Assembly: GCA_964291315.2 (NCBI GenBank)
Contig: OZ219753.1
Span: forward strand, 2,432,001-2,496,000
From: Candidatus Poribacteria bacterium
Lineage (GTDB): Bacteria > Poribacteria > WGA-4E > WGA-3G
Length of the DNA: 64,000 nucleotides
Direction: 5' to 3'
In this document: positions 5,447 through 25,352 of the stretch, piece after piece
Numbering within the stretch: the first letter of the stretch is position 1
Layout of the letters: each line of letters starts with the position of its first letter
Made by a program: the position numbers and the translations under genes
Notes under the pieces: model-generated
The model's database searches: none
Told to the model about the DNA's origin: nothing
What the model saw: the letters and a program-made list of their open reading frames with translations, nothing else

Positions 5447-5476
5447 TTGCAAAGGAACGGTACAGTATGCTATAAT
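5447..5476 (+). promoter_or_regulatory. Sigma70-type promoter upstream of the cobalamin riboswitch
   Basis: TTGCAA-N18-TATAAT with TG extension. Confidence 0.65.
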
Positions 5477-5503
5477 ATATAGATTACAATCGAATAATTT
5501 GAA

Positions 5504-5719
5504 GATTCAGGTGCCGGAAGAGCCGGAGAATAGGGAAGCGCGGTGAGAAACCGCCACGGCCCCGCCACTGTGAACGATCCACCTTCGTTGAAGGCGAGTA
5601 TCCGCTGAAAAACCACTGTCAATAGACTAATTGATGGGAAGGATAGCGGATTTACGTAAAGCAAGTTTGGACGTGTCAACCACGCCAGAGGATCGGAAGT
5701 CAGGAGACCTGCCTGAATC
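5504..5719 (+). ncRNA. Cobalamin (AdoCbl) riboswitch
   Basis: AGGTGC...AATAGGGAA..CGGTG..AA.CCG..CGGCCCCCGCCACTGTG...CCACTG...TGGGAAGG...B12 box AAGTCAGGAGACCTGCC; P1 GATTCAGG (5504) pairs with CCTGAATC (5712). Confidence 0.95.
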
Positions 5720-5864
5720 GTGTTTCACACATCTGTTTTCGCGGGAGAGCAGTGGAACAGCGTACAGCAATATCCTGTTAGATGAAGAAGATAGAAGTGC
5801 TGCGGAAGATATAGAATCCTTGCACGAAATCACAGGATTAGACTTACATGACATGTCGCCGTAC

Positions 5865-5934
5865 CCTCTGTTTCTCGGAGCTGATTGTGAGTTGGCAACT
5901 TGCAATCAAAAGCTGTGAAGACAGAGGTTTTTTG
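5865..5934 (+). terminator. Long hairpin plus U-tract, probable riboswitch expression platform
   Basis: CCTCTGT..AGCT-GATTGTGAGTT-ggc-AACTTGCAATC..AGCT..ACAGAGG-TTTTTT just before the GGAGG SD of the first gene. Confidence 0.55.
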
Positions 5935-5954
5935 TTTCATTACGGAGGCTTTCG

Positions 5955-7331
5955 GTGAAGCTTGCAAGCCGAAAGTTATTATTGAAAAATATGAACAACG
6001 TTTTTTGCCCTCGGCGGCATTTTTCGCGCTATTCTCACAACCTATATTCGCTCCTACTTATAGGCGCGATACTCTTCACGCCTCTCCTGAGCCCTGTTTT
6101 TGGACAAACAGAAGTTCAGGAGATAGCTGTTGTCATAAACGCTTTAACCCACCCCGACTTAGGTATTACCGCTTCACTTTCGCTCATAGATCTAACGGAA
6201 ACCAACGAAAAACGGGCTGTTGATAATGAGGTGCTCCATTTCAGTACCGAGGTGCTTCATCGAAGACGGGCAGCCGAACTTTCCATTCACGGTCATCTGG
6301 CTTATATTCCGACCTTTAACTTACCTGCTACGGGTGATTCCAGTTTCGGCGACAACATCTTTATTGTCAACTTAGAAAACCGAGAAATTGTGGGTGAAAT
6401 TCCGATTCAAGACGGTGCAACCCCTCAACAGATCGCTCTTATCAGTCATCAGAAGATGTATGTCACCTGTGCCGCGGCACATCAAGTGCATGTCATCGAC
6501 ATCCCTAATCGTAACGTAACGAAGGTCCTCACCGGCCCCTTCAACAAACCCACGGGTATTACGCTGCTCAATGGTAAAGCGTACGTGTCGAACCCTGCGT
6601 GGGAGTGGGATCCGGTTGAACGGAAAACAATCTATTACGACAGCAGCATCACAGTGATTGATACGGAGACAGATGTTATACTGACATCGATCCCGGTACC
6701 GACAAACGCCGGCGAGATCATCAACGATGCTGAATCCACCATTATTGTCAAAACAATAGGCAATTATAATGACATCTTGGGACATCTCGTTCTGATTGAC
6801 GCAACCACTGACGAGGTAATTAAAACAGTTAAACTGGGCTTCACCCCTGGTTCCGCTGCTCTTAATCCACAAAAGCAGCTGTTTCTTCAAGGGAGCTGGG
6901 AAAACCCAGGGCTGCTTATCTACGATGTTGTTGCGCAAGACTGGGTCCGGGATGAAGATGATCCGATTGCTAATTTTAGTAACGATGAGGAAGCTCCTAT
7001 CGACGGGTCTCTGACTTTTGCGCCGGACGGTCATTTGTTTATAACGAAGCCTGATTGGGCGGGTAGCGGTCAGGATTTCGTTCGTATCATGGACGTGACG
7101 GACGCGGCTCTTCTAAAGACCTATCACGTCGGTCCCGGCGGTTCCATCCTAGCATTTGCACAGATTATTCCTCGTGGCGAAGACATCAATAACGACGGGT
7201 TTGTTAACATGGAGGACTTAACACTGGCAAGCAAGTTTTTGGGCGATCAAGGGACCGGACGTGTTGCCGATGTCAATGGAGACAGCATTGTTAATGTTCT
7301 CGATCTAGTGCTGATAGCACAAGCACTATAA
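5955..7331 (+). CDS. Secreted YncE-like beta-propeller with C-terminal type I dockerin; candidate cobalamin-binding protein
   Basis: Signal-like hydrophobic segment, YncE-type repeats (KMYVT, KAYVSN, ITVIDT), paired DINNDGFVN..DL / DVNGDSIVN..DL; GGAGG SD; under a B12 riboswitch. Confidence 0.75.
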   Translation: MKLASRKLLLKNMNNVFCPRRHFSRYSHNLYSLLLIGAILFTPLLSPVFGQTEVQEIAVVINALTHPDLGITASLSLIDLTETNEKRAVDNEVLHFSTEVLHRRRAAELSIHGHLAYIPTFNLPATGDSSFGDNIFIVNLENREIVGEIPIQDGATPQQIALISHQKMYVTCAAAHQVHVIDIPNRNVTKVLTGPFNKPTGITLLNGKAYVSNPAWEWDPVERKTIYYDSSITVIDTETDVILTSIPVPTNAGEIINDAESTIIVKTIGNYNDILGHLVLIDATTDEVIKTVKLGFTPGSAALNPQKQLFLQGSWENPGLLIYDVVAQDWVRDEDDPIANFSNDEEAPIDGSLTFAPDGHLFITKPDWAGSGQDFVRIMDVTDAALLKTYHVGPGGSILAFAQIIPRGEDINNDGFVNMEDLTLASKFLGDQGTGRVADVNGDSIVNVLDLVLIAQAL

Positions 7332-7352
7332 GGGTTATCAGTTCTTAGTTAA

Positions 7353-9347
7353 GTGAGGTCTATGGACGGAACTTGCAACACCCATACAAGATCAATCGAT
7401 AACCGCCAACTAGGGACTAACAACTATTATGAGTCTCTTTGGTACGTGCCACTGCTCATTTTCTTGATCAGTTGTGCCTCATCCGTTAAAGATGCACCGT
7501 TTTCATGGAAGGTGACGTTCTTTTCGCTTGGGGCAAAGGCACGCCTGAGTGCGGAGGCACCTGTGCAGCGCCTGACTGCCTTTAACGCCGATGGCGTAAC
7601 GGTTGCACAGCTCAATTTTCCCGCTCCACCGCGTCAGATAGAATCCCTCTATTTTGAATGGCAGTCAGGGGAAACCTATAGGTTTGAAGCCACTTTGACA
7701 ACAGGGGATGTGGAGACTCAAACCCTAACGGCTCCGCGAAGATACACACAAGGTGGCTTAGAGATCGCTATCCCCTACGGTGTTGGAATGCAATCGGAGC
7801 CAGGCAGCACAGCAAGCAACGACCAAGTTGCTCTCGTCTTACACGAAACCGAGATGGCAGCCACCGTCCTCGTTAGAAACGGAAAGATGCCAGCGACCTT
7901 TGACGTCAACGTCTTTCTCCCGTCAACGTTGAGTGTTGCCCGTCTGCCGGCGGGTTGGAAAATCGAAATAACTGAGGCAGGAACACACCTCTCCACCACT
8001 GATAGATTTGGCGTTGCATCGGAGGTTTGGTATCGTGAGCTAATTTTGAAGACCTCCACGTCAATCGACTCAGGGAGGCAAGAAATTTCTGGGGTTGTCC
8101 AGTTCACAACAGACAGGGGGCAGGTATGGGAACACCGGACGACGGTACAGGTGCGTGTTGCAACTGTGCCAGAGATTACCGAGAATCTCTCAATAGTATC
8201 GATGGAGATGCCTACAGATGCAAAAGGAACAGCAGATCCAAAGCAACGAGCGGATACTATCTACTATCCACGCCCACTGTTCCGTTGGCTTGAGACCTCA
8301 CAGACGAACCCGTTCGAACCCACAACCTATCAGACCGTCCGGATCCGCAATGCGGGCGAGGAAACTATCCATGTGCTTGTGTCCTCGACCGCTAGAGATG
8401 TAAAGACGGGTGAAGTTGTGCCTTTCCTTTCGCCGCCGGAGGCAGCAAACGGTGGAACGAACCAGAGCGTCGCCTTCGCAAGTCTGCCCGGAGGCATCGT
8501 TACTGAAATTGCGTTACCTATCTATTTTCACCCGGTGTATTTAAAAGAAAGTAGGCCGGAACGGGCGGTCCCGGGGGAATACACGCGCGATATTGCAGTG
8601 AAGATCTGGGGAAGCGACACGACAATATTCCGCGCAAAACAGCCACTCCATCTGATGGTGCCAAATCGACAAGCACTGCTCGTCAGTCTACTAGCGATCG
8701 TCAGCAGCACCATCGGACTGGCAGTTGTTCTAAGACTACACAAACAACTGTTCGCCGGTTTCACAACAAAACAGCTCATTGTCATCGCGCTGTTTGGCAC
8801 AACCATGTTTGTGGCGGTGACTGTCCCGTCAACGCTATTTCTTAACTTGATTCGTGCTGTCCTGGGACCTATCTCTCTCCTGCTGACAGGCTTGATAAAT
8901 GAGACGCTCTACTATGCTTTGCTGACCGCGTTGCTCATCTATATTAATGGAAGCCCCGAAAGCAACGAGGGCGCTAATCGAAAACCATATCGTAAGGGCA
9001 GCGGGGTCATTCTGCTGGTCTCCGCAGTACGCTTACTTCTCAGCGGCGTGACCTTCGGGCTTTTTACACCAATAGCGATCGTCTACACTGGTGCAAGCGT
9101 ACTTCTGTTGGAAACAGGTTTTCTGTTCGTGCGAGAACGTAGCCTGTTCATGTGGGCAGTTGTGTTGAGCCTCTGTGACGCCATCGCCGTCTATGTCGAT
9201 TTTCAACTCTCTATATTCCTCTACCGGCTTTTCTACGCCGATTGGTATATTATTCTCCGGATCTTAATAGAGGGATTCGCCTATACGTTTATTGGGGTGC
9301 TACTCGGTGCAAGATTAGGACGAGGTCTCTGGCGTGTAGCGGATTAA
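7353..9347 (+). CDS. Lipoprotein-like extracellular domains fused to a C-terminal multi-TM domain resembling an ECF S-component
   Basis: LLIFLISC lipobox-like; about 6-7 hydrophobic helices from QALLVSLL on, including FTTKQLIVIALF; start uncertain. Confidence 0.65.
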   Translation: MRSMDGTCNTHTRSIDNRQLGTNNYYESLWYVPLLIFLISCASSVKDAPFSWKVTFFSLGAKARLSAEAPVQRLTAFNADGVTVAQLNFPAPPRQIESLYFEWQSGETYRFEATLTTGDVETQTLTAPRRYTQGGLEIAIPYGVGMQSEPGSTASNDQVALVLHETEMAATVLVRNGKMPATFDVNVFLPSTLSVARLPAGWKIEITEAGTHLSTTDRFGVASEVWYRELILKTSTSIDSGRQEISGVVQFTTDRGQVWEHRTTVQVRVATVPEITENLSIVSMEMPTDAKGTADPKQRADTIYYPRPLFRWLETSQTNPFEPTTYQTVRIRNAGEETIHVLVSSTARDVKTGEVVPFLSPPEAANGGTNQSVAFASLPGGIVTEIALPIYFHPVYLKESRPERAVPGEYTRDIAVKIWGSDTTIFRAKQPLHLMVPNRQALLVSLLAIVSSTIGLAVVLRLHKQLFAGFTTKQLIVIALFGTTMFVAVTVPSTLFLNLIRAVLGPISLLLTGLINETLYYALLTALLIYINGSPESNEGANRKPYRKGSGVILLVSAVRLLLSGVTFGLFTPIAIVYTGASVLLLETGFLFVRERSLFMWAVVLSLCDAIAVYVDFQLSIFLYRLFYADWYIILRILIEGFAYTFIGVLLGARLGRGLWRVAD

Positions 9348-9527
9348 ACTATCAGTCCATACGCTGAAGCATGCCACACACTAACACCCTGTGCTACAAT
9401 GTTCCTATTCATTTCTAAACCTTACTGTCGAACTTACGTTGACGATCTATACCGAGTAACTCACAAAGAAACGCGAAACCTGCAGTCCGAACAACGCAGA
9501 AAATTTACAACACAAGGAAACACGATC

Positions 9528-11225
9528 ATGAAGCGGATTCAATTTTTTAGTTTGCTCTGTCTGTTTACGATCTTACCTGTCAGTATTGTGACAGCCGACA
9601 TAGGTATCACTTGGGTAAGGACAGGCGTAGTGCTTGAAGTTCAACACGAAAATGGTCTCGAGACCGAGATTAACGTCACAACTACGGTTAACGGAACAGC
9701 ACAAGCATTAACCACACCGCCCACAATCCAACGGTTTGATGTGAACCGTGCTTTGCTCCAGTTTGAATGGCAACCCAATCAAAATTACCAATTCCGCTTG
9801 AACGATACGGAAACGACAGCGACAGCTCCGCTAAAGCCTGAACCTTACCTCATCCGTACCGTCGAATTAGATGGTCTCTTGTCATTGATGGAAAACTTGC
9901 GTCGACCGGCAACGCCGACAGCCGTTGCTTTAAGCTCCGGAAACGCTCTTGGCACAGAAAAATTGGCGGTTGCAACCGACAGCGGGCATCTCGCTCTTCT
10001 CCACCCCATCACAGGGAAAACGCTCTGGAAAACCCGTATCTCGGAAGGTTACGTGCGGCAACTTGCATTTAGTGCTGACAGTACCTCGCTCTACATTGGG
10101 GAACAAGCAGCAGACGGGTTCATCTATTGCTACAGTCTAACAGACGATACACCCAAACCTCGCTGGAAATACCGGACCGCTGATGATATCGAGACTTCTA
10201 CACCGCGCGACCCGGAGAGCGCCTACGCATGGGTTAGCTATCCGGGTCAGGCTTGTATGCAAACGTTGACGAACGGGGATCTTCTGGCTGCAGGTGTGCA
10301 TTCGTGGACAGAAAACGATATACCACAGAAGAAGTCCCAGCTCTATAGGTTTGAGAGTGAAACCGGAAACGTTATTTGGAAATGGCCACATAACAACCCG
10401 GTATCAAGGATAATCCGCTGGTTTGATATAAGTGCTGACGGGGAAACCCTCGCGCTCGTAACAGATGCCGGACACAATCTACAAGGAGCAACAACTGAAA
10501 ACGAGCTTGGCAATGGGAGACTGGTCCTTCTCAACACAGAAGATGGCACAGAAAAATGGCGCACCGATATTGACCCCTTGAGTCCCTATTTTTCGCAGGT
10601 TACGTTTTGGCGCGGGGTCAGTGTATCGCCTGATGGCACGTTCGTCAACGTAACAACGGACGACGGGCGCTCCTTCATTTTCGATGTCAATACATCTGAA
10701 CCGGTATGGCAAGAGAATCTGGCGACACCGTTAGAGGTGAGCGGTGTCCCCATCGTTGCTACTTCTGGCACGATTGGCGCGACGGATGCAGCCGCACTTT
10801 TTGTGACGGGTGACACGTATATTCCGTACCACCTCCGAAAAGGCACACAACGCCCTTCGGCTGCACATCCAAACGGGATGACACTGTTTGCCTATTCTTG
10901 GACAGGCAAAAAAATCTGGCAGTGGCAACTTGAGAATATGCCGCAAGGTTTACGTATAGACACAAAGGATCGCTATGCCTTGTTGTCTGTTTCTAAGCGC
11001 GCACAAAATCCGAATGAGAACCTCCACGGCGTGTCAATGTTTGACCTAACAGCAGCAGGAGGCGGTTTATCGAAATATCTGTACACCTATCGCACAGAGG
11101 GGCAGCTGCCTTATGATACGCTCGCGATCAGCGAGGACGGCGCGCTCGTCGTCGTTGTTGAAATCCCTATTGTAATGCAGGACGAAACGACGCGCGGAAA
11201 AAATCGGGTGCATCTACTCTATTGA
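9528..11225 (+). CDS. Secreted PQQ-like/WD40 beta-propeller protein
   Basis: Signal peptide MKRIQFFSLLCLFTILPVSIVTA after AAGGA; repeated TGKTLW/TGNVIW/GTEKW/TGKKIW blades. Confidence 0.8.
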   Translation: MKRIQFFSLLCLFTILPVSIVTADIGITWVRTGVVLEVQHENGLETEINVTTTVNGTAQALTTPPTIQRFDVNRALLQFEWQPNQNYQFRLNDTETTATAPLKPEPYLIRTVELDGLLSLMENLRRPATPTAVALSSGNALGTEKLAVATDSGHLALLHPITGKTLWKTRISEGYVRQLAFSADSTSLYIGEQAADGFIYCYSLTDDTPKPRWKYRTADDIETSTPRDPESAYAWVSYPGQACMQTLTNGDLLAAGVHSWTENDIPQKKSQLYRFESETGNVIWKWPHNNPVSRIIRWFDISADGETLALVTDAGHNLQGATTENELGNGRLVLLNTEDGTEKWRTDIDPLSPYFSQVTFWRGVSVSPDGTFVNVTTDDGRSFIFDVNTSEPVWQENLATPLEVSGVPIVATSGTIGATDAAALFVTGDTYIPYHLRKGTQRPSAAHPNGMTLFAYSWTGKKIWQWQLENMPQGLRIDTKDRYALLSVSKRAQNPNENLHGVSMFDLTAAGGGLSKYLYTYRTEGQLPYDTLAISEDGALVVVVEIPIVMQDETTRGKNRVHLLY

Positions 11226-22613: not shown

Positions 22614-25352
22614 CTATTGGTCAGACGATTTCAGATCTCCCCAACGCGTCGTGAGCTTACCCCTCGCAGAGACATCCCCACGCAGATGCGTCGTCCGTAA
22701 CGTCGTCCGCACCCCGTCCATAGAGACATCCTCTATCTGGTAGTAATACACCACATTCGGCTTCGCAGTCGTATCTGTGTAGCGATACACTTGCCTCTCA
22801 GAGGTCGTGCCGTGTCCCGCAATCAGACCCTTCGTGTTGATAACCGCAAACTCGCCGGTCTTACTCTCACTGCGTAGGATATTGAACCCCGCATTGTTAA
22901 GTTCGGACTGAGTTATCCAGCTAATCTCAACGTGGCCCGTTACGGCATCGCGCACAGGCCGGAAGCTGGAGAGCGAAACCGGGAGCGGACTACCCAGACG
23001 ATAGCCGGGCGTGCCGACATCGTTGCGATGCCCGTAGAACGTCAGCGAAGCACCTGCCAGATCAGACTGCCGCCAAGAGGCTGCCATCAGCCCATCATCC
23101 GCATCATACGGTCCAGAACCCTCTGACATGTCGTTGAACACACCCCCATAGGTCCGCACAATAGAGGTCCGCATCTCACCGCGTTCAGGCAAGTCCCACG
23201 CATGGGTCCGCATAGCACCATTTACCTCAACGTTGCCAGCCTCGTCCATAACCTCCATTTGATTCCGGGTGCCAGTCGGCGCACTCAGCTTCAAATAGAA
23301 GCCCTCCGCACTCAGCAACCGACGCCCGCGCGTCGCCAACCCGAGATCGCTACGGTGGGTTTCTTCTAGATTATACACGTAGTTCTCTGGCACATCGTTC
23401 GCACCGCTGCTCGAGACCAGCAACAACGTCTGATTCGGTGGAATATAGGTACCCGCATCAAACTTGAACTCCGCATCTACATACGACTCTACCTGTGTGT
23501 TCTCGTTACGGATCTCAAACTTCCAATTCTCAAGGTTCACCGTATCGGTCCTAGAGCTGTTGTAGAGCTCTATCCACTGCACCAAGTTCCAGCGCGGCCC
23601 CGCGTCATACATAATCTCGCTGATCGTCACTGTCCCCTTGAAGGTGTAGTTTCCCTCGGAGACCTTATTCACTGCCATGTTCGGATACCCCGGCGTGCCA
23701 GGGGAATCCATGGGGTCAACAGTTTTATCGCGCCCGCGATCGTAGCCAGTGCCCATGAAACCGAATGACTGCCAGTCGTTTTTGTGAACGCGGTTCACAT
23801 TCGACTTCGCGCCGTACATGCCCTGTGAATTGATCTCGACACCCCGACCGAACGACATGCTCCGAGAAGAGAAAGTGTTCATACCACCGAAATCGTTATC
23901 ATCAACGTCTCCCGGCTTCGTCCAACCTACGAACGGCCAGACATCCGTGTTGAACTTCCTATCTTCCATCCGCCCAAAGAACCCATTGCCGGCATAGTCT
24001 TTGATATTTGTCGCCTTGCCGACATCATCAGCGCTATTCCGCGTGCGCAGCAAGATCAGGAACTTCCCTTCAGCCGGAAGTTTTAAATCTGTGGAGACCA
24101 CATACTTGTGCATGGTCCCTTTTTTGATGTCGGTTTCGTCCAAGAGATCCTGAAGATTGACACCATCCGCGAGCGGAACCGTGCGCCCCGGGTCTCGGTT
24201 ATAGACAACAAGATACTCGCCCGGCATCATCTCGTATTCAGGCAGCACCGCAAGGCTCGTGTCTGTAAAGTTCGCATCACCCGACTCGTGATAGCCGCTA
24301 CCGTCGTCCTTCATCTTCCCCATCACCAAGCTCAGCTCATAGTCCTTTATGTTCACCGGAGGATCCGATGCATTCTCACTGTTATAGAAGAGCTCTATCC
24401 AATCGAAGTTCAGACTTGAAGGATCGTTGCGCACCTCGTTGATGATGATGTTCGGAAGCTCTGTAAAATCGGGTTGCCTAGCAAACATCGTTACCGTTGG
24501 ACCGCCCGGGGGAACGTGAACGCTCCCTGGGGAACCTGTGTAAAAACTCCAGAGATTAATCCGACCGGTAGAAGCCTCCCAAGAACTTGCCTCGGCCCCG
24601 GAACCCAACCCCTTCAGTTTTCCGTTTTCGAATTGATACCCCGTACCCGTGCTATCCAGCTCGATCTTCCGATACATAGAGACCATATTCTCGGGAAGAG
24701 CACCGGTATTCGAGTTCCCATCGGTATTGCCATTGGTACCTTTCAGCGCCCAAAGACGGCCAAAACGGTCAACCGTTGTTACACGATCCAAAACGACATA
24801 CTTGCGTTCAGGAGTGTTTGCATCATTGTCATGATCACGCATATACGTCTCACCCGGAGCAGGTAAAAGCACATGATGTTGCCGCATAGCGATTACATCG
24901 TCTTTTTTCAGACCACTGTGGCAGTAGAGTTCAAGCCATTGGGCATCTTTTCTGTAAGGAGAATCCGTCCCCCACATTACCTCGGTGAAGACGATGTAGT
25001 GCTTGTACGCCCTCAGCTGCTCATCTGTCATATCAGCCTTCAAGGTATACTCACTATCAGCCGTTCCAATTTCAGCTGCCGTTGGCACTTGCATTGCAAC
25101 GACATACGCACCACCTGCCATTAAGTTCTCATGTACATCCCACAAGGCAGCCCCCTGGTTAACCCCGGTTGCGGTCGCCTGGATCCCATTCTTAGTCCAG
25201 TCGGCAGTAGCAGCCCAAACAACAAACTGTTTGGGCTTCAGGAATCCTTTTGTGGTGGAGTCAATCACGGTAAGATTTGCTGGAGCCCAGGTTGTCGCGA
25301 ACACAAACATAAGCCCCAAGACTATAAAAAATCTCATTCTACTACATAACAT
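22614..25352 (-). CDS. Secreted lamin-tail-domain protein, 912 aa
   Basis: Signal peptide; three LTD-like starts (FTEVMW..QWLELY, INEV..DWIELF, ISEIMY..QWIELYN) closed by GSPG/SPG/GTPG; LPVSLSSF Ig-like domain; GKLTTRWGDLK tail; AGGAG SD. Confidence 0.85.
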   Translation of the reverse strand: MLCSRMRFFIVLGLMFVFATTWAPANLTVIDSTTKGFLKPKQFVVWAATADWTKNGIQATATGVNQGAALWDVHENLMAGGAYVVAMQVPTAAEIGTADSEYTLKADMTDEQLRAYKHYIVFTEVMWGTDSPYRKDAQWLELYCHSGLKKDDVIAMRQHHVLLPAPGETYMRDHDNDANTPERKYVVLDRVTTVDRFGRLWALKGTNGNTDGNSNTGALPENMVSMYRKIELDSTGTGYQFENGKLKGLGSGAEASSWEASTGRINLWSFYTGSPGSVHVPPGGPTVTMFARQPDFTELPNIIINEVRNDPSSLNFDWIELFYNSENASDPPVNIKDYELSLVMGKMKDDGSGYHESGDANFTDTSLAVLPEYEMMPGEYLVVYNRDPGRTVPLADGVNLQDLLDETDIKKGTMHKYVVSTDLKLPAEGKFLILLRTRNSADDVGKATNIKDYAGNGFFGRMEDRKFNTDVWPFVGWTKPGDVDDNDFGGMNTFSSRSMSFGRGVEINSQGMYGAKSNVNRVHKNDWQSFGFMGTGYDRGRDKTVDPMDSPGTPGYPNMAVNKVSEGNYTFKGTVTISEIMYDAGPRWNLVQWIELYNSSRTDTVNLENWKFEIRNENTQVESYVDAEFKFDAGTYIPPNQTLLLVSSSGANDVPENYVYNLEETHRSDLGLATRGRRLLSAEGFYLKLSAPTGTRNQMEVMDEAGNVEVNGAMRTHAWDLPERGEMRTSIVRTYGGVFNDMSEGSGPYDADDGLMAASWRQSDLAGASLTFYGHRNDVGTPGYRLGSPLPVSLSSFRPVRDAVTGHVEISWITQSELNNAGFNILRSESKTGEFAVINTKGLIAGHGTTSERQVYRYTDTTAKPNVVYYYQIEDVSMDGVRTTLRTTHLRGDVSARGKLTTRWGDLKSSDQ

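Follow-up and report, generated by a model that had tools for sequence, protein, structure and literature searches.

The window considered here is a stretch of 64,000 nucleotides (positions 2,432,001 to 2,496,000 of contig OZ219753.1, assembly GCA_964291315.2) from the genome of a Candidatus Poribacteria bacterium, an assembly of 4.40 Mb in 4 contigs that is 95% complete and in which the window corresponds to C4:2432001-2496000. Within it lies a cobalamin riboswitch followed by three co-oriented genes, here called P1, P2 and P3, that encode a beta-propeller with a dockerin, an immunoglobulin (Ig)-like array joined to a membrane domain and a second, PQQ-like propeller. Vitamin B12 is made by few microbes and competed for by many, and to our knowledge the route by which it is imported has not been established for most bacteria. 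The locus is probably the substrate-capture half of an energy-coupling factor (ECF)-type ATP-binding cassette (ABC) importer for corrinoids, that is B12 and its relatives, which is switched off by B12; the basis of this, as of every functional statement made below, is computation.

The aptamer of the riboswitch (5492-5730, + strand) matches the family RF00174 with 88.7 bits and an E value of 1.4e-20, along the whole model (positions 1-189 of 189) and above the gathering score of 31.5 bits. RF00174 is the sole Rfam family matched in the window, and this is the only match to it in the whole genome. The expression platform is of the terminator type, with an intrinsic terminator at 5865-5934 (+) made up of a long hairpin (about 5865-5927, -31.9 kcal/mol) and a run of six T at 5929-5934. 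A simple terminator scan did not list this hairpin, the scan pattern admitting loops of 3-8 only. A candidate sigma-70-like promoter (5447-5476, +), with TTGCAA, 18 nt and TATAAT and a TG before the -10, sits 16 nt 5' of the aptamer and agrees with the consensus at 10 of 12 positions, this being a consensus match only in a region that holds 9 such sites where 7.2 are expected from shuffles. The clear cobalamin riboswitch and terminator-like hairpin of a preliminary description of this DNA, which was made from the sequence alone, are both borne out by these matches.

The three open reading frames (ORFs) that follow are separated by short gaps and all lie on the + strand, P1 at 5955-7331, P2 at 7353-9347 and P3 at 9399-11225, so that the Rfam, ORF and family searches confirm the arrangement first described, that of a riboswitch, a hairpin and three co-oriented genes. 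The same description held that the operon has no BtuB, BtuCDF or ECF A or T gene, and indeed none of BtuB, BtuC, BtuD, BtuF or the ECF A and T genes was found within 5492-11225 by ORF and family searches, hence no component of the canonical BtuB/BtuCDF system is carried in the riboswitch operon. The gene 3' of P3 encodes a GTP-dependent phosphoenolpyruvate carboxykinase (PEPCK), and on the 5' side of the riboswitch are divergent hisI, trpE and trpG genes.

The association of riboswitch and genes is conserved throughout the relatives compared, a set of 80 Poribacteria loci with one genome per species, these being 80 of the 319 relatives, and all 80 are Poribacteria. An aptamer homologue is found on the same strand 1.6-2 kb 5' of P2 at 77 of the 80 loci, and the three loci that have no aptamer match have less than 860 bases of upstream DNA, so all 77 loci that can be assessed are positive. 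A similar hairpin and T-run lies 3' of the aptamer at 63 of these 77, compared with 2 of 76 control windows placed inside the P2 gene. P1 and P3 are each present at 78 of the 80 loci, most of the misses being contig ends, with one locus (L080) having no P3 within its flank. The flanking genes vary, PEPCK being found at none of the 80 loci and hisI at 41. As the riboswitch and the trio are kept while the flanks change, the module moves as a unit. In a wider sample of 121 genomes from the phylum P2 is present in 113, comprising every genome of four families (f1-f4, 112 genomes and the host genome itself) and none of the 8 genomes of four further families (f5-f8).

P2 encodes a protein of 664 amino acids that is anchored at its N-terminus and consists of an Ig-like array, one extra helix and an ECF S-component domain. 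Its start codon is uncertain and may lie anywhere from 7353 to about 7446. A lipobox-like motif, LISC, occupies residues 38-41 with the cysteine at position 41, and hydrophobic helices predicted from the sequence span residues 442 to 655, in keeping with the earlier suggestion of a lipoprotein that ends in a multi-transmembrane domain. The AlphaFold2 model of the whole protein, built from 51 sequences, has a predicted local distance difference test score (pLDDT) of 87.8, with the lipobox-bearing N-terminus of low confidence. In this model the extracytoplasmic part (residues 52-435; 7506-8657, +) is all-beta and forms about four Ig-like sandwiches, while the membrane part (residues 439-663; 8667-9341, +) is a linker helix and a six-helix unit that the model and its structural matches assign to the S-component fold. 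A Foldseek search with the whole of P2 returned Ig-like arrays only (PrgB, integrin legs, RbmA), and the membrane domain was then folded separately.

The last 235 residues, folded alone, gave a model with a pLDDT of 92.9. When this model was compared with 48,161 representative chains, ranks 1 to 15 were all ECF S-components, with Z scores from 12.2 to 7.4 and matches that cover model residues 40-235. The best match is YkoE (5edl; Z 12.2, root-mean-square deviation 3.0, 170 residues aligned), which shares its fold with the last 195 or so residues of P2, and the list includes FolT (Z 10.7), RibU (10.6), HmpT (10.4), NikM (10.3), CbiM (7.9), BtuM (8ovv, 7.9) and also ThiT, BioY and PanT; the first unrelated chain has a Z of 6.2 and CbrT (6fnp_E) one of 5.7. 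Foldseek likewise places 5edl first, as the sole row with a low deviation. The comparison tool warns that for helical bundles a Z below about 13 may reflect nothing more than a common arrangement of helices, and the weight given to the S-component assignment comes from the uniformity of the list and from the matches spanning the full domain. The S-component-like membrane unit that had been postulated for this operon does appear to be present.

The extra helix (residues 439-461) takes the chain from outside to inside ahead of the six-helix unit, as is the case in NikM and CbiM, and the alignments with these two proteins include it (model range 13-232). P2 thus has seven helices and an outside N-terminus in common with the S-components of CbiMNQO and NikMNQO. 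A lipobox-like motif, sought with a loose pattern, is found in 23 of 51 members of the family and many of the others begin with a hydrophobic anchor helix; the ectodomain of P2 therefore seems to have an inner-membrane tether at each of its two ends.

At the level of sequence P2 stands apart, with no Pfam or NCBIfam family matched. A full HMMER search gives its family 347 clusters at 50% identity, mostly of 540-680 residues, with conservation highest from about residue 260 to the C-terminus, three invariant residues (E587, R625 and W631) and a motif, LYRLxFADWY, near the C-terminus; a quick tree of the family was used solely to choose distant rows. An ESM Atlas search with P2, with a best score of 0.75 and taken as a lead only, pointed to PF09819. 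The best row of the P2 profile among PDB sequences was OspA (E 0.086), which was set aside as beta-rich noise.

P3 (9399-11225, +; 608 amino acids) has a probable start at the ATG at 9525 and a signal-like N-terminal helix, followed by an N-terminal beta domain and a propeller of the PQQ/BamB type (PQQ_2, 43 bits with a cut-off of 27.6), which makes it the secreted PQQ-like propeller that it was first taken to be. It was also considered as a relative of the corrinoid binder BtuG and this was dropped, the P3 profile yielding generic PQQ and WD40-like matches only. The N-terminal domain of P3 and the first domain of P2 are relatives (BLASTP E 2e-4), and the P2 family profile matches the first 110 or so residues of the gene just 3' of P2 in about twenty genomes. 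The related beta domains with which P2 (7485-7760) and P3 (9525-9950) open carry the motif FEWQ..Y.F....AP.

Modelling of the proteins as a complex, which had been proposed as a check, was run for the P2 ectodomain (residues 46-440) and P3, and gave a score of 0.85 in three runs where the best of 3 controls gave 0.00. Of the solved complexes 116 of 157 attain the mark against which such scores are read, as do 2 of 215 mismatched pairs, a calibration that holds roughly here since the alignments were self-built. Contact agreement between the runs was at least 56% and the partner pLDDT at least 80, and on the P2 side the interface of the model involves residues 59-102. The models support binding of P3 to the P2 ectodomain. 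It is P3, the PQQ-like propeller, that is the widely conserved partner of P2 and not the dockerin propeller P1.

The preliminary description pointed to BtuM, a solitary ECF S-component, and also proposed that the genome be searched for ECF A and T genes. That search found one of each outside the operon. The host genome has one T gene of the CbiQ family (C4:3058748-3059668, 98 bits), an isolated gene flanked by moaB and a Ca/Na antiporter gene, and one fused double ABC ATPase (AA') of 507 residues (C4:545403-546926). A solitary reading of the BtuM type was rejected on these grounds, P2 differing from BtuM in having both an ECF T and a fused AA' in its genome, and homologues of these genes share an operon with P2 in other phyla. 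The fused AA' gene begins 8 bases past a gene for a B12-binding radical S-adenosylmethionine (SAM) protein (domains B12-binding, Radical_SAM and DUF4070; G000:C4:543392-546926, the same as L174:3393-6927), and the presumed energiser of the importer may be co-transcribed with this B12-using enzyme.

The range of P2 beyond the Poribacteria was judged from metagenome contigs, many of which end early, together with one search that gave organism names. Among 80 metagenome loci with a P2 homologue 60 have a neighbouring T gene, 52 a fused double ATPase, 53 a P3-like propeller and 31 a TonB-dependent receptor, these families being confirmed by Pfam in the subset of loci examined. The gut-type loci come from Phascolarctobacterium and Acidaminococcaceae, in which the protein carries the annotation hypothetical. 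One of these loci, L139, has in order a riboswitch, a TonB-dependent receptor, the P2 homologue, a double ABC_tran protein, CbiQ, a PQQ_2 propeller and ABC_membrane. The AA' ATPase of the host shares 34% identity with the ATPase of this operon over 513 residues and its T shares 33% with the T of L139, each being the best or only match in the host genome. Furthermore, the distribution of T orthologues in the 121-genome sample is that of P2, with T present throughout families f1-f4 and only one weak 28% match in f5-f8. Because AA' and T adjoin P2 homologues elsewhere, match the host genes, and T shares the distribution of P2, P2 takes the place of the S-component in a dedicated ECF transporter. 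Its S, AA' and T genes lie dispersed over the genome in Poribacteria, where the riboswitch governs the capture genes only.

In the loci of the Phascolarctobacterium type (L113, L139, L149, L170 and relatives) an exporter-type ABC_membrane gene is found 3' of the P3-like propeller, and L149 has, upstream of its riboswitch, a CbiK with an N-terminal extension of 70 residues.

Cobalamin-class riboswitches are not confined to the Poribacteria, they are found 5' of the module and on the same strand at L107, L113/L114, L118, L121, L139 and L149, which are at least five distinct groups (L107; L113/L114; L118/L121; the L139 group; L149). Of 53 metagenome loci scanned with Rfam 7 have such a riboswitch, and nhmmer added 8 near-copies of L139, whereas no non-cobalamin Rfam family (SAM, thiamine pyrophosphate (TPP) or other riboswitch) was matched in the 53. 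Had homologues of the trio been found apart from B12 riboswitches this would have told against the first interpretation, in the event they are linked at all 77 assessable Poribacteria loci and at 7 of the 28 scanned metagenome loci that have more than 2.5 kb of upstream sequence. The corrin-linked neighbours of P2 homologues include BtuR/CobO, CbiZ and CbiK.

Among the closest known parallels to this arrangement is YkoEDC, a dedicated (group I) ECF transporter. YkoE, YkoD and YkoC are also arranged as S, double ATPase and T, which is the gene order at P2 loci of other phyla. P2 differs from YkoE in having some 400 extra extracytoplasmic residues, an extra helix and a conserved propeller partner; its operon is under B12 and not TPP riboswitches, and its S, AA' and T genes are scattered in Poribacteria. 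With CbrT and BtuM P2 has in common the presumed class of substrate, the S-component fold and a link to B12, but no sequence match to them was found, and it comes with a module of its own, an extensive ectodomain and propellers as partners. BtuM functions in the absence of an ECF module, whereas CbrT relies on a shared module. The literature presents BtuM as a predicted uptake system and assigns CbrT to an ECF transporter as its S-component.

The first gene of the operon adds a protein that is related to a known binder of corrinoids. P1 (5955-7331, +; 458 amino acids) is by family and profile matches a secreted propeller of the YncE/BtuG-like, presumably seven-bladed type with a C-terminal type I dockerin, the YncE-like propeller and the dockerin having been recognised in the preliminary description; its probable start is the ATG at 5991 (M13), with which the length of homologues (441-447 amino acids) agrees. 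The N-terminus has a single hydrophobic helix and a signal peptide without a lipobox. The dockerin (Dockerin_1, PF00404, residues 409-458; 7179-7328, +) scores 33.2 bits with a cut-off of 22.9, is retained in the aligned homologues, and the P1 profile also matches solved dockerins in the PDB. Weaker matches are to propellers of YncE, of hydrazine synthase beta and of DUF5074. Cohesins, which had been suggested as a further object of search, have 5 matches elsewhere in the host genome. In a metagenome relative of P1 (L146:2-1741) a FlgD Ig-like domain comes after the dockerin, so that the tether is arranged differently.

When the P1 profile was compared with PDB sequences the top match was an archaeal S-layer YVTN propeller (E 2e-15) and the next 12 of 12 rows were BtuG1, BtuG2 and BtuG3 of Bacteroides thetaiotaomicron, with E values of 1.6e-11 for BtuG1 and about 1e-7 for BtuG2 and BtuG3 over some 230 positions; every solved chain of the three was matched, and below them came hydrazine synthase beta, Lp49 and dockerins. 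The likeness to BtuG raised in the preliminary description is therefore stronger than expected, and P1 is, as far as profile comparison goes, a relative of the Bacteroides corrinoid binder BtuG, sharing with it the YncE-type propeller superfamily. The assignment of the PDB entries to BtuG1, BtuG2 and BtuG3 was taken from PMC10404256 and a bioRxiv preprint (10.1101/2024.02.16.580637), the latter of which also gives a list of the BtuG residues in contact with the corrinoid. Together with PMC6143338 these papers describe cobalamin and cobinamide as bound in the cavity of the propeller with very high affinity. According to PMC6143338 btuG loci lie behind a B12 riboswitch, as P1 does, and BtuG is exclusive to Bacteroidetes by BlastP, whereas P1 is from Poribacteria. 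P1 also differs from the BtuG lipoprotein in having a cleavable signal and a C-terminal dockerin in place of a lipid anchor, and no TonB-dependent receptor adjoins it as BtuB does BtuG.

The metabolism of the host indicates what the operon may be for. No match to CbiC, CobS, CobD/CbiB, CobN or a BtuR-type adenosyltransferase was found in the 95% complete genome, while three genes with a B12-binding domain and a PduO-type adenosyltransferase are present; an ORF of 1235 amino acids with a B12-binding domain is taken for MetH. The sole B12 riboswitch of this B12-dependent, non-producing organism sits on the P1-P2-P3 operon. Across the phylum sample none of the 113 P2-bearing genomes has a match to CobS, whereas 5 of the 8 others do, and as genomes within one phylum are kin this complementarity counts few independent events. 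It is quite likely, from this context, that a corrinoid is the substrate in the host genome. In its general form the proposal of a non-canonical system for the capture and uptake of cobalamin is supported, with both the S-component fold and the riboswitch linkage upheld.

The genome also has a heme-type uptake cluster (G000:C1:144590-152469, locus L012) with a TonB-dependent receptor, an HmuQ-like heme-degrading protein, a BtuF-like binding protein and a BtuC/FecCD permease, in addition to an ATPase that passes the cut-off of the heme ABC equivalog and a Dps-like gene. It is the only strong FecCD system in the genome (294 bits), a second, unannotated match having 31.6 bits. There are ten matches to TonB-dependent receptors in the genome and none is under the cobalamin riboswitch.

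A mechanism can be proposed that would bring these parts together. At low adenosylcobalamin the terminator would not form and the three genes would be transcribed. P1, whose dockerin would hold it on an envelope protein with a cohesin, would then capture corrinoid, its location at the surface, its binding of corrinoid and the hand-off that follows all being inferences. The P3 propeller and the Ig-like arm of P2, which would be anchored in the inner membrane at both ends, may relay the corrinoid to the pocket of the S-component, which may lie near E587, R625 and W631. With the AA' ATPase as its drive, the S-component would topple onto the T scaffold and release the corrinoid inside, where the PduO-type enzyme could adenosylate it to give the product that closes the riboswitch.

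A broader proposal, which we put forward more tentatively and regard as somewhat short of an even chance, is that P2 and P3 represent an unrecognised family of ECF vitamin importers that is suited to bacteria which possess an outer membrane. In this family the S-component would have its own periplasmic Ig-like arm, tethered at both ends and in obligate complex with a PQQ-like propeller. Arm and propeller would replace a soluble binding protein and pass corrinoid to the membrane pocket, taking it from a receptor of the outer membrane or, in the case of the Poribacteria, from a relative of BtuG that is tethered by a dockerin. No account of a P2-type family of S-components or of the operon was found in the open-access literature, subscription journals and supplements lying outside that search, and one may be in print.

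A number of observations weigh against these interpretations. Besides the warning about helical bundles, P2 has no membership of an S-component family by sequence, PF09819, the YkoE family, being matched weakly by 2 of 56 members with a best E of 0.0032, and the P2 family profile found nothing significant among PDB sequences. The nearest solved S-component, YkoE, belongs to thiamine-related transport, with the B12-linked BtuM and CbrT lower at Z 7.9 and 5.7. The best PDB match of P1 is the archaeal S-layer propeller rather than BtuG, the likeness to BtuG is one of profiles, and P1 is missing in most lineages, a P1-like gene being found at 3 of the 80 metagenome loci. Only 7 of the 28 scanned metagenome loci whose upstream sequence exceeds 2.5 kb have a riboswitch. 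Within the host genome an outer-membrane route for B12 was not identified, and the BtuCDF-like system with a TonB-dependent receptor on contig C1, which scores best as heme transport, could carry B12 and so provide a second route. Finally, the substrate of the importer is inferred from context.

Other points concern cobalt. A CobN chelatase directly adjoins the module in 7 of 24 metagenome loci scanned for neighbouring families (L095, L099, L109, L110, L111, L117, L173), ChlI/D-like genes are found in 3 of the 24 (L111, L116, L139), and a position beside CobN is the usual one for a cobalt transporter. The module could then be a Co2+ ECF importer of the CbiMNQO kind that serves B12 synthesis, with the propellers and Ig domains handling metal in the periplasm. 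B12 riboswitches are reportedly a common control of cobalt transporters (Rodionov and co-workers), and riboswitch control and chelatase neighbours are both features that some P2 lineages have in common with CbiMNQO and NikMNQO, to which may be added the alignment of NikM and CbiM (Z 10.3 and 7.9) across the extra N-terminal helix. In CbiM and NikM the metal is bound by the free N-terminus, but the corresponding position of P2 is fused to some 400 residues, and no CbiN-like gene was seen. The host genome has no match to CobN, CbiC, CobD or CobS and CobS is absent from all 113 genomes of the phylum that carry P2, so that a cobalt importer under B12 repression would have nothing to supply; a cobalt importer in the host genome was rejected because the synthesis genes were not found. 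The relation of P1 to a corrinoid binder and the CbiZ and BtuR neighbours, which point to the salvage of corrinoids, also argue against cobalt. We regard cobalt as an unlikely substrate overall, it is however a live rival for the CobN-linked lineages. These loci suggest a chelatase-linked subtype of the system. In L095 and L099 the stops and starts of CobN/Mg-chelatase and the P2, P3 and T genes overlap, CbiZ and a fused ChlI/D are additional features of L111, and TonB and ExbD genes are found near the CobN-linked modules.

Less likely still, and to be given little credence, is that the operon imports or handles another tetrapyrrole, such as heme or a corrin precursor, or a nutrient that spares B12, such as methionine, with B12 repressing it because the need for it arises only under B12 shortage. 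CobN-like proteins do occur in heme loci of Bacteroidota, and the TonB-dependent receptors beside P2 homologues are not specific to B12. B12 riboswitches also repress genes for B12-independent bypasses, for example metE and nrd, according to the accessible part of PMC8620254. Yet every neighbour that names a pathway (BtuR, CbiZ, CbiK, CobN) is corrin-related, no SAM, TPP or other riboswitch was matched in the 53 scanned loci, P1 matches BtuG, and the host has its separate heme-type cluster with the HmuQ-like gene. That the trio is an envelope or adhesion complex without a role in transport is highly improbable, for although adhesins often contain Ig-like arrays, dockerins and propellers, whole P2 matches adhesins and integrin legs in Foldseek and a helical-bundle Z below 13 can arise by chance from a generic bundle, all 15 of the top structural matches are of one family and cover the whole domain, P2 homologues lie beside or between ECF AA' and T genes in most metagenome loci, the T orthologue and P2 share a distribution in the phylum, and the operon is under riboswitch control.

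Two other features of the window were seen in passing. On the - strand an ORF of 264 amino acids (668-1462) has a C-terminal alanine-rich unit that is present three times (AAEAKARQQADA...). Also on the - strand, about 11 kb downstream of the operon, a secreted-looking protein of 912 amino acids (22614-25352), seen as its translation only, has no family assigned.

If the reading of the locus as the capture half of an ECF-type corrinoid importer is true, it would provide a testable B12 uptake system for the Poribacteria, abundant uncultured symbionts of sponges that, to judge from these searches, can neither make cobamides nor complete them. P1 would be the first relative of BtuG outside the Bacteroidota, and one tethered by a dockerin. 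A name and a testable function would also be given to a family of hypothetical proteins whose 347 clusters at 50% identity reach as far as Phascolarctobacterium of the human gut, and the ECF transporters, a class mostly studied in bacteria that have no outer membrane, would gain a new architecture. Should the proposal of an ECF family formed by P2 and P3 hold as well, the system would be the only entry route for B12 in the main order of Poribacteria and a main one in gut Phascolarctobacterium.

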